Shown here: positions 42,177-46,755 of the stretch, one piece after another
How positions within the stretch are numbered: the stretch's first letter is position 1
Layout: each line of letters opens with the position of its first letter
NCBI RefSeq assembly: GCF_003334315.1
Contig: NZ_QOWR01000003.1
From: Escherichia coli
Lineage (GTDB): Bacteria; Pseudomonadota; Gammaproteobacteria; Enterobacterales; Enterobacteriaceae
Length of the DNA stretch: 64,000 nucleotides
Reading direction: 5' to 3' (one strand)
The notes under the pieces: model-generated
What the model saw: the letters and a program-made list of their open reading frames with translations, nothing else
What the model was told of the DNA's origin: nothing
The model's database searches: none
Program-made: the position numbers and the translations under genes

Positions 42177-42284
42177 GCTCGTCGCACATATCTTCAGGTT
42201 ATTGATTTCCGTGGCGCAGAAAAAAGCAAATGGCACATCTGTTTGGGTATAATCGCGCCCATGCTTTTTCGCCAGGGAACCGTT

Positions 42285-43487
42285 ATGCGCATCCTTCACA
42301 CCTCAGACTGGCATCTCGGCCAGAACTTCTACAGTAAAAGCCGCGAAGCTGAACATCAGGCTTTTCTTGACTGGCTGCTGGAAACAGCACAAACCCATCA
42401 GGTGGATGCGATTATTGTTGCTGGTGATGTTTTCGATACCGGCTCGCCGCCCAGTTACGCCCGCACGTTATACAACCGTTTTGTTGTCAATTTACAGCAA
42501 ACTGGCTGTCATCTGGTGGTACTGGCAGGAAACCATGACTCGGTCGCCACGCTGAATGAATCGCGCGATATCATGGCGTTCCTCAATACGACCGTGGTCG
42601 CCAGCGCCGGACATGCGCCGCAAATCTTGCCTCGTCGCGACGGGACGCCAGGCGCAGTGCTGTGCCCCATTCCGTTTTTACGTCCGCGTGACATTATTAC
42701 CAGCCAGGCGGGGCTTAACGGTATTGAAAAACAGCAGCATTTACTGACAGCGATTACCGATTATTACCAACAACACTATGCCGATGCCTGCAAACTGCGC
42801 GGCGATCAGCCTCTGCCCATCATCGCCACGGGACATTTAACGACCGTGGGGGCCAGTAAAAGTGACGCCGTGCGTGACATTTATATTGGCACGCTGGACG
42901 CGTTTCCGGCACAAAACTTTCCACCAGTCGACTACATCGCGCTCGGGCATATTCACCGCGCACAGATTATTGGCGGCATGGAACATGTTCGCTATTGCGG
43001 CTCCCCCATTCCACTGAGTTTTGATGAATGCGGTAAGAGTAAATATGTCCATCTGGTGACATTTTCAAACGGCAAATTAGAGAGCGTGGAAAACCTGAAC
43101 GTACCGGTAACGCAACCCATGGCAGTGCTGAAAGGCGATCTGGCGTCGATTACCGCACAGCTGGAACAGTGGCGCGATGTATCGCAGGAGCCACCTGTCT
43201 GGCTGGATATCGAAATCACTACTGATGAGTATCTGCATGATATTCAGCGCAAAATCCAGGCATTAACCGAATCATTGCCTGTCGAAGTATTGCTGGTACG
43301 TCGGAGTCGTGAACAGCGCGAGCGTGTGTTAGCCAGCCAACAGCGTGAAACCCTCAGCGAACTCAGCGTCGAAGAGGTGTTCAATCGCCGTCTGGCACTG
43401 GAAGAACTGGATGAATCGCAGCAGCAACGTCTGCAGCATCTTTTCACCACGACGTTGCATACCCTCGCCGGAGAACACGAAGCATGA
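42285..43487 (+). CDS. sbcD: Nuclease SbcCD subunit D (Mre11-like phosphoesterase)
   Basis: 400-aa product [24 protein letters not shown]... from ATG at 42285; calcineurin-like motifs (DWHLG, GDVFD, GNHD). Confidence 0.95.
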
Positions 43488-46400
43488 AAATTCTCAGCCT
43501 GCGCCTGAAAAACCTGAACTCATTAAAAGGCGAATGGAAGATTGATTTCACCCGCGAGCCGTTCGCCAGCAACGGGCTGTTTGCTATTACCGGCCCAACA
43601 GGTGCGGGGAAAACCACCCTGCTGGACGCCATTTGTCTGGCGCTGTATCACGAAACTCCGCGTCTCTCTAACGTTTCACAATCGCAAAATGATCTCATGA
43701 CCCGCGATACCGCCGAATGTCTGGCGGAGGTGGAGTTTGAAGTGAAAGGTGAAGCGTACCGTGCATTCTGGAGCCAGAATCGGGCGCGTAACCAACCCGA
43801 CGGTAATTTGCAGGTGCCACGCGTAGAGCTGGCGCGCTGCGCCGACGGCAAAATTCTCGCCGACAAAGTGAAAGATAAGCTGGAACTGACAGCGACGTTA
43901 ACCGGGCTGGATTACGGGCGCTTCACCCGTTCGATGCTGCTTTCGCAGGGGCAATTTGCTGCCTTCCTGAATGCCAAACCCAAAGAACGCGCGGAATTGC
44001 TCGAGGAGTTAACCGGCACTGAAATCTACGGGCAAATCTCGGCGATGGTTTTTGAGCAGCACAAATCGGCCCGCACAGAGCTGGAGAAGCTGCAAGCGCA
44101 GGCCAGCGGCGTCACGTTGCTCACGCCGGAACAAGTGCAATCGCTGACAGCGAGTTTGCAGGTACTTACTGACGAAGAAAAACAGTTAATTACCGCGCAG
44201 CAGCAAGAACAACAATCGCTAAACTGGTTAACGCGTCAGGACGAATTGCAGCAAGAAGCCAGCCGCCGTCAGCAGGCCTTGCAACAGGCGTTAGCCGAAG
44301 AAGAAAAAGCGCAACCTCAACTGGCGGCGCTTAGTCTGGCACAACCGGCACGAAATCTTCGTCCACACTGGGAACGCATCGCAGAACACAGCGCGGCGCT
44401 GGCGCATATTCGCCAGCAGATTGAAGAAGTAAATACTCGCTTACAGAGCACAATGGCGCTTCGCGCGAGCATTCGCCACCACGCGGCGAAGCAGTCAGCA
44501 GAATTACAGCAGCAGCAACAAAGCCTGAATACCTGGTTACAGGAACACGACCGCTTCCGTCAGTGGAACAACGAACCGGCGGGTTGGCGTGCGCAGTTCT
44601 CCCAACAAACCAGCGATCGCGAGCATCTGCGGCAATGGCAGCAACAGTTAACCCATGCTGAGCAAAAACTTAATGCGCTTGCGGCGATCACGTTGACGTT
44701 AACCGCCGATGAAGTTGCTACCGCCCTGGCGCAACATGCTGAGCAACGCCCACTGCGTCAGCACCTGGTCGCGCTGCATGGACAGATTGTTCCCCAACAA
44801 AAACGTCTGGCGCAGTTACAGGTCGCTATCCAGAATGTCACGCAAGAACAGACGCAACGTAACGCCGCACTTAACGAAATGCGCCAGCGTTATAAAGAAA
44901 AGACGCAGCAACTTGCCGATGTGAAAACCATTTGCGAGCAGGAAGCGCGCATCAAAACGCTGGAAGCTCAACGTGCACAGTTACAGGCGGGTCAGCCTTG
45001 CCCACTTTGTGGTTCCACCAGCCACCCGGCGGTCGAGGCGTATCAGGCGCTGGAGCCTGGCGTTAATCAGTCTCGATTACTGGCGCTGGAAAACGAAGTT
45101 AAAAAGCTCGGTGAAGAAGGTGCGACGCTACGTGGGCAACTGGACGCCATAACAAAGCAGCTTCAGCGTGATGAAAACGAAGCGCAAAGCCTCCGACAAG
45201 ATGAGCAAGCACTTACTCAACAATGGCAAGCCGTCACGGCCAGCCTCAATATCACCTTGCAGCCACTGGACGATATTCAACCGTGGCTGGATGCACAAGA
45301 TGAGCACGAACGCCAGCTGCGGTTACTCAGCCAACGGCATGAATTACAAGGGCAGATTGCCGCGCATAATCAGCAAATTATCCAGTATCAACAGCAAATT
45401 GAACAACGCCAGCAACTACTTTTAACGACATTGACGGGTTATGCACTGACATTGCCACAGGAAGATGAAGAAGAGAGCTGGTTGGCGACACGTCAGCAAG
45501 AAGCGCAGAGCTGGCAGCAACGCCAGAACGAATTAACCGCGCTGCAAAACCGTATTCAGCAGCTGACGCCGATTCTGGAAACGTTGCCGCAAAGTGATGA
45601 ACTCCCGCACTGCGAAGAAACTGTGGTATTGGAAAACTGGCGGCAGGTACATGAACAATGTCTCGCATTACACAGCCAGCAGCAGACGTTACAGCAACAG
45701 GATGTTCTGGCGGCGCAAAGTCTGCAAAAAGCCCAGGCGCAGTTTGACACCGCGCTACAGGCCAGCGTCTTTGACGATCAGCAGGCGTTCCTTGCGGCGC
45801 TAATGGATGAACAAACACTAACGCAGCTGGAACAGCTCAAGCAGAATCTGGAAAACCAGCGCCGTCAGGCGCAAACTCTGGTCACTCAGACAGCAGAAAC
45901 GCTGGCACAGCATCAACAACACCGACCTGACGACGGGTTGGCTCTCACTGTGACGGTGGAGCAGATTCAGCAAGAGTTAGCGCAAACTCACCAAAAGTTG
46001 CGTGAAAACACCACGAGTCAAGGCGAGATTCGCCAGCAGCTGAAGCAGGATGCAGATAACCGTCAGCAACAACAAACCTTAATGCAGCAAATTGCTCAAA
46101 TGACGCAGCAGGTTGAGGACTGGGGATATCTGAATTCGCTAATAGGTTCCAAAGAGGGCGATAAATTCCGCAAGTTTGCCCAGGGGCTGACGCTGGATAA
46201 TTTAGTCCATCTCGCTAATCAGCAACTTACCCGGCTGCACGGGCGCTATCTGTTACAGCGCAAAGCCAGCGAGGCGCTGGAAGTCGAGGTTGTTGATACC
46301 TGGCAGGCAGATGCGGTACGCGATACCCGTACCCTTTCCGGCGGCGAAAGTTTCCTCGTTAGTCTGGCGCTGGCGCTGGCGCTTTCGGATCTGGTCAGCC

Positions 46401-46630
46401 ATAAAACACGTATTGACTCGCTGTTCCTTGATGAAGGTTTTGGCACGCTGGATAGCGAAACGCTGGATACCGCCCTTGATGCGCTGGATGCCCTGAACGC
46501 CAGTGGCAAAACCATCGGTGTGATTAGCCACGTAGAAGCGATGAAAGAGCGTATTCCGGTGCAGATCAAAGTGAAAAAGATCAACGGCCTGGGCTACAGC
46601 AAACTGGAAAGTACGTTTGCAGTGAAATAA
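43484..46630 (+). CDS. sbcC: Nuclease SbcCD subunit C (Rad50-like SMC ATPase)
   Basis: 1048-aa ORF; Walker [10 protein letters not shown], long Q/E-rich coiled coil with central CPLCG zinc hook, signature LSGGESF and Walker B LFLDEGF; ATGA overlap with sbcD. Confidence 0.97.
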
Positions 46631-46755
46631 CTATTCAGCAGGATAATGAATACAGAGGGGCGAATTATCTCTTGGCCTTGCTGGTCGTTATCCTGCAAGC
46701 TATCACTTTATTGGCTACGGTGATTGGTAGCCGTTCTGGTGGTTGTGATGGTGGT

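Follow-up and report, generated by a model that had tools for sequence, protein, structure and literature searches.

The window analyzed here, a stretch of 64,000 nucleotides from Escherichia coli, contains a long open reading frame whose product carries the motif QPCPLCG, and the question raised by this locus is whether the motif is a zinc hook of the kind that joins the arms of Rad50-like proteins. In this family, the hook keeps the two arms joined, and Mre11-Rad50 depends on it to function. The initial annotation had taken the motif for such a hook, and in our assessment QPCPLCG is almost certainly the zinc hook of SbcC, a DNA-repair ATPase of E. coli that is homologous to Rad50.

Identity and genomic context of the gene

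The flagged reading frame and its upstream neighbor were assigned as follows.

43484..46630, + strand: sbcC coding sequence, 1048 amino acids and a stop codon
42285..43487, + strand: sbcD coding sequence, 400 amino acids, encoding the nuclease partner

The protein encoded by the flagged reading frame scored 1933.7 bits against the NCBIfam family NF007600 (cut-off, 750) and 1456 bits against TIGR00618 (cut-off, 478.5), both of which represent SbcC, and the PDB chain 6s6v_C ("Nuclease SbcCD subunit C") matched it over its full length, residues 1 to 1048. The upstream protein scored 639.5 bits against NF008206, the SbcD equivalog (cut-off, 450). Besides, the 4.5 kb from 42200 to 46700 showed 100% identity to several complete chromosomes of E. 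coli, whose annotation of this stretch is sbcD and sbcC. The flagged gene is a complete and intact E. coli sbcC, and the earlier gene call was thus confirmed by the NCBIfam equivalog, by genome identity, and by the full-length match to a known structure. The SbcC of the E. coli entries 6S6V, 6S85, 7YZO, 7YZP, and 7Z03 and of NF007600 is the same protein, with nothing different.

The gene sbcD lies directly upstream of sbcC with a 4-bp overlap, ATGA (43484-43487), in which the start codon ATG of sbcC (43484-43486) runs into the stop codon TGA of sbcD (43485-43487). This stop-start overlap suggests translational coupling of the SbcD and SbcC subunits. The pair is neighbored by phoR and phoB upstream and by araJ, mak, and rdgC downstream, i.e., it occupies the chromosomal phoBR-sbcDC-araJ locus, and the sbcDC stretch occurs as a single copy in 5425 of the 5426 complete E. 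coli genomes compared.

A few minor observations concern the locus as a whole. The sbcDC match was absent from 1 of the 5426 genomes, and one single sbcDC copy in that collection came from a record classified as a plasmid. The mechanically called reading frame of sbcD begins at a TTG at 42243, and the RefSeq start is the ATG at 42285, which gives 400 amino acids; the N terminus of the NCBIfam match agrees with the latter. Two antisense reading frames within sbcC (45378-45818, - strand, 146 amino acids, and 46246-46584, - strand, 112 amino acids) have no RefSeq annotation, do not overlap the hook codons, and are probably spurious. No RNA family of Rfam reached its gathering threshold between 41000 and 48000.

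The motif and the domain layout of SbcC

Within sbcC, we located the motif, its two cysteine codons, and the ATPase motifs.

43592..43615, + strand: Walker A GPTGAGKT, residues 37-44 (Pfam AAA_23 matches residues 5-206)
SbcC residues 154-156: Q-loop SQG
44993..45013, + strand: QPCPLCG, core of the CxxC zinc hook, residues 504-510 (C506, C509, and G510 invariant)
44999-45001, + strand: codon of Cys506, tgc
45008-45010, + strand: codon of Cys509, tgt
46334..46348, + strand: ABC signature LSGGE, residues 951-955 (Pfam SbcC_Walker_B matches residues 931-1002)
46421..46435, + strand: Walker B LFLDE, residues 980-984
SbcC residues 1015-1016: H-loop SH

The letters at 44993-45013 on the plus strand, CAGCCTTGCCCACTTTGTGGT, are in frame (frame 0) with the reading frame 43484-46630 and translate into Q504 P505 C506 P507 L508 C509 G510. 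The ABC-ATPase motifs of SbcC are divided between both termini, with Walker A in the N-terminal part (37-44) and the signature and Walker B in the C-terminal part (951-955 and 980-984), as the initial annotation had described. It had also placed the motif roughly midway through a long region rich in Q, E, and L between Walker A and the signature and Walker B motifs. Indeed, C506 lies at 0.51 of the distance from Walker A to the signature, calculated as (506-37)/(951-37), and residues 191 to 880 are composed of 20.7% Q, 13.3% L, 11.3% A, and 9.1% E. CPLC is the sole CxxC in SbcC, which contains 8 cysteines in total.

Position of the motif in the coiled coil

To our knowledge, the cryo-EM entries of E. 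coli SbcC do not show the hook at high resolution. We modeled its surroundings with AF2, both as a fragment of residues 440 to 580 (46 homologues; pLDDT, 92.4; pTM, 0.78) and within the full-length protein (59 sequences; pLDDT, 79.5), and divided the rod into three parts.

44024..44974, + strand: ascending N-terminal coiled-coil arm, residues 181-497, 296 helical residues (AF2)
44975..45058, + strand: nonhelical apex loop with reversal of the chain, residues 498-525 (AF2 models and heptad trough)
45059..46144, + strand: descending C-terminal coiled-coil arm, residues 526-887, 309 helical residues (AF2)

The fragment model consisted of two helices (441-498 and 526-579) and the loop between them (499-525). 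In the full-length model, helices 408-497 and 526-587 flanked a nonhelical stretch (498-516), a short helix (517-520), and a second nonhelical stretch (521-525), and the first of these stretches was the longest nonhelical one in the 700-residue helical rod. A crude heptad score, which rewards hydrophobic residues at positions a and d and penalizes hydrophobic residues elsewhere as well as Pro and Gly, was raised over approximately residues 181 to 880 and had its deepest trough inside the rod at 501-530. Residues 506 to 509 lie inside the apex loop 498-525 and not outside the apex, and the Rad50-type hook architecture that had been claimed for the protein, i.e., an apex loop between arms of 296 and 309 helical residues, was upheld. 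Furthermore, the fragment model fits helical hairpins and the Rad50 hook 6zff at 2.9 Å. Judging from the pTM of this model and its structural matches, helices 408-497 and 526-587 are predicted to pack into an antiparallel hairpin around CPLC.

The helical residues of the two arms correspond to approximately 44 nm for the N-terminal arm (296 residues, 181-497) versus 46 nm for the C-terminal arm (309 residues, 526-887), and an exact equalization of the helical counts would put the split at 529-530, approximately 20 residues past the motif. HS-AFM has shown pairs of SbcC coiled coils that are linked through the hook and measure approximately 90 nm in contour (bioRxiv 10.64898/2026.07.21.739852), and a predicted arm of approximately 45 nm, counted twice, agrees with that length. 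Among homologues of 1006 to 1295 amino acids, the lengths of the N- and C-terminal arms co-varied (r = 0.81; slope, 0.78), as would be predicted for arms that have to pair while keeping the hook at their tip.

The full-length model also contained helix breaks at 208-214, 276, 292, 355, 362-363, and 399-407 in the N-terminal arm and at 588-598, 652-659, 701-713, 760-775, and 813-824 in the C-terminal arm. Expressed as helical residues from the hook, breaks lie at 90, 125-131, 193-208, and 269 in the former and at 62, 115, 156, 202-209, and 246 in the latter. We considered an arrangement of the breaks mirrored about the hook and did not rely on it, the pairing being only approximate. Separately, the C-terminal arm is interrupted by a Pro-rich stretch at 701-713 (45584-45622) with an AF2 pLDDT below 50, and the N-terminal arm has small breaks at 276 and 292 (44309-44359) with prolines at 278, 288, and 294; the two sites are about equally far from the hook. 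At residues 701-713 and 276-292, the rod may be kinked or discontinuous, as has been reported from HS-AFM (bioRxiv 10.64898/2026.07.21.739852).

Conservation of the hook

We scanned 1.84 billion cluster representatives with HMMER and kept the best 150 matches at a mutual identity of 50% or less. A central CxxC was present in 148 of these 150 representatives, at a mean relative position of 0.51 between Walker A and LSGG, and it read CPLC in 138 cases. Column counts anchored on the motif were made over 149 hook-bearing sequences (the 148 representatives and the query), and MAFFT alignments, which are independent of the anchored counts, agreed on the conservation of the hook. Four columns were invariant (C506, C509, G510, and H514; 149/149), and three were nearly so (R497 and L500, 99%; L493, 98%). 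L508 was found in 97% of the sequences and Val in the remainder, so that Leu or Val accounted for 100%, and P507 was found in 95%. Conservation extended beyond CPLCG to P515 (96%) and Y520 (86%), and on this basis we delimited a larger module.

44960..45043, + strand: extended conserved hook module, L493-Y520, with L493, R497, L500, CPLCG, [SA]511, H514, P515, and Y520

Together with W368, the hook columns were the only invariant or near-invariant ones between approximately residues 290 and 665. There was no other conserved cysteine within 70 residues on either side of CPLC, and with one CxxC per chain, a site of four cysteines needs a second chain. At the nucleotide level, two divergent E. 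coli strains differed at 5 and 4 of the 81 hook nucleotides, all of the changes being synonymous, and a K-12 derivative was 100% identical over the hook stretch. The hook is under strong purifying selection.

These data bear on whether the motif might be a chance CxxC without function. Some CxxC did arise in 5.2% of 50,000 shuffles of the SbcC sequence, but only 0.14% of the shuffles put one inside the apex loop (498-525). Moreover, both cysteines are in place in 148 of 150 representatives that share no more than 50% identity, they belong to an island of conservation within a poorly conserved rod, and the differences among E. coli strains are synonymous only. We reject a chance origin, which is refuted by the conservation data and which we regard as practically impossible.

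Two of the 150 representatives lacked the hook. One of them (P0076, 1156 amino acids) has the hook loop deleted and C553 and C561 where the loop would be, and the other (P0002, 697 amino acids) has lost an internal segment asymmetrically, corresponding to approximately residues 232 to 580; either may be a hookless variant, a pseudogene, or an assembly artifact. In length, E. coli SbcC with its 1048 amino acids ranks near the lower end of the 150 best representatives, 90 of which have 1200 to 1249 amino acids, and the extra length of the longer ones is split across both arms. A megablast search with the 81-nt hook query gave matches in 5161 E. coli genomes only, a count that probably reflects the exact 28-nt word required by megablast and not absence of the hook.

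Comparison with Rad50 hooks

The Rad50 hook (Pyrococcus furiosus, 1L8D and 6ZFF; Chaetomium thermophilum, 7ZQY; Pfam PF04423) is, like that of SbcC, a knuckle of the form C-P-hydrophobic-C-G, and in both proteins the knuckle lies in the loop at the tip of an antiparallel coiled coil, with one ABC-ATPase half-domain on either side in the sequence. Alignment with Rad50 hooks, by which the initial annotation was to be checked, supported it. When the SbcC hook profile was compared by hhalign with the P. furiosus Rad50 hook, whose sequence we verified to be identical to residues 43 to 103 of 1l8d_A, a match was obtained with an E value of 7e-5 and a probability of 63%, in which CPLCG lay opposite CPVCG, and H514 and Y520 lay opposite a His and a Tyr, respectively. 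Gaps of 3 and 2 residues were needed after the Gly. In addition, the counterparts of P507, L508, and G510 of SbcC in P. furiosus Rad50 are P445, V446, and G448, residues for which stabilization of the Zn(hook)2 complex has been demonstrated by experiment (PMC5093744). Unlike Rad50 hooks, the SbcC clade has its own extended signature, R-x2-L-x5-CPLCG[SA]xxHP-x4-Y.

The Pfam model of the Rad50 zinc hook, PF04423 (Rad50_zn_hook), gave no match on full SbcC at an E value of 10 or less, and on 46 fragments of the hook region (in E. coli SbcC, residues 440 to 580, 44801-45223 of the window) it matched 0/46 at an E value of 0.001 or less and 2/46 at 0.1 or less. We read this miss as the limited reach of the model, because hhalign aligns the same hook with the solved one at an E value of 7e-5. 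Domain-based annotation will overlook the hook of the SbcC clade, including that of E. coli.

Other searches of the PDB were nonsignificant or returned SbcC itself. With the hook region (residues 439 to 582) as the query, phmmer found SbcC alone and no Rad50 hook. The profile of the 46 fragments reached 1l8d at an E value of 0.14 and 6zff at 0.34, both nonsignificant and buried among generic coiled coils. Foldseek, searching 350,542 chains, returned nothing at an E value of 0.001 or less, and its top four matches were LmuB (9hqu_A and 9hqx_B) and 1l8d_A and 1l8d_B (nonsignificant E values of 0.12 to 0.22), with LmuB in first place and the latter two at ranks 2 and 4 with E values of 0.15 to 0.22. 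A shorter profile of 57 columns did not retrieve the Rad50 hooks from the PDB; its matches were CPxCG sites of rubredoxins and Zn knuckles and LmuB (9hqu), all at E values above 0.01.

The rubredoxin knuckle shares the local form C-P-x-C-G[SA] with the SbcC hook, and the short hook profile matched rubredoxin knuckles at E values of 0.19 to 3. Rubredoxins have two knuckles per chain, whereas SbcC has one, and the second knuckle must therefore come from another chain. The same matches are relevant to a different reading of the motif, in which CxxC, also the redox motif of the thioredoxin family, would be a redox-active dithiol/disulfide switch and not a metal site at all. The form C-P-x-C-G fits metal knuckles, and the best non-self PDB matches of the short profile were rubredoxin or Zn-knuckle sites. 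Besides, there is no thioredoxin fold around the motif, which lies in a loop between helices of 60 to 90 residues, the full-length AF2 model has no strands within residues 181 to 920, and SbcC resides in the reducing cytoplasm. We rejected the redox switch on conservation and secondary structure, and it appears extremely unlikely.

The invariant histidine raises a subtler alternative within the metal-binding interpretation. In the sequence CPLCGxxxHP, His514 might be a third ligand of a noncanonical site, either Cys2His within one chain or switchable, in place of a site of four cysteines from two chains. His514 is present in all 149 hook-bearing sequences, followed by Pro515 in 96% of them, and it lies 5 residues past Cys509 in the same nonhelical loop. 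However, hhalign pairs it with a His of the P. furiosus hook, in which zinc is bound by four cysteines only (PMC5093744), and a conserved His could equally be a second-shell or packing residue. We consider such a site very unlikely. A broader proposal would see the hook of the SbcC clade as a 28-residue apex module, which comprises the invariant His514-Pro515 as well as R497, L500, and Y520 and in which the His serves as an extra or alternative ligand or as a switch between splayed and rod-like states; we regard this, too, as unlikely, if somewhat less so. No description of His514 as a ligand or as a switch of hook states was found in the literature searched. The two-chain zinc hook remains our preferred reading.

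Related systems and proposed function

The hook has further counterparts in LmuB of the Lamassu anti-phage systems (9HQU and 9HQX) and in RloC, both of them reported to be SMC-like ABC ATPases that bear a CxxC hook at their center and are related to SbcC (PMC12663957; PMC2610378). They differ from SbcC in their far shorter coiled coils and in their partner proteins and effectors, and in LmuB the hook is variably present. Unlike the partners of LmuB and RloC, the neighbor of SbcC is sbcD, in a chromosomal phoBR-sbcDC-araJ context.

In our preferred reading, the SbcC chain folds back on itself, bringing the N-terminal half-domain (Walker A) and the C-terminal half-domain (signature and Walker B) together into one ABC-ATPase head, and residues from approximately 181 to 497 and from approximately 526 to 887 pair as an antiparallel coiled coil of approximately 45 nm. 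The chain reverses in the loop 498-525, which bears C506-P-L-C509-G. The mechanism can be proposed by homology with the solved Rad50 hooks. Cys506 and Cys509 from two SbcC chains would coordinate one Zn2+ in tetrahedral geometry, and the metal would join two arm tips and hold SbcC2-SbcD2 together far from the head. Finally, the arms may close to a ring or rod around DNA and thereby gate the SbcD nuclease at ends and hairpins. For zinc binding, coordination by two chains, and the mechanics downstream, we infer the behavior of SbcC from that of the Rad50 hook, as described for 1L8D, in PMC5093744, and in the reviews PMC7752040 and PMC6969161. In E. coli itself, SbcC dimers joined at the hook have been visualized by HS-AFM (PMC6969161; bioRxiv 10.64898/2026.07.21.739852).

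The initial annotation had presented the hook as known biology, and this is correct, as E. coli SbcC has already been termed a CxxC zinc-hook SMC-like protein (PMC12663957; PMC2610378). A literature search pairing SbcC with CPLC gave no match. The zinc hook of SbcC is an already known and ordinary feature, and its presence at this locus adds nothing new to established biology. Its use here is that of a consistency check, which supports the annotation of the reading frame: sbcC is intact, and its product has the head, coiled coil, and hook of the Rad50 type. The textbook account is extended in two small respects, namely, that PF04423 misses this clade and that an invariant His-Pro forms part of the longer hook signature of the clade.
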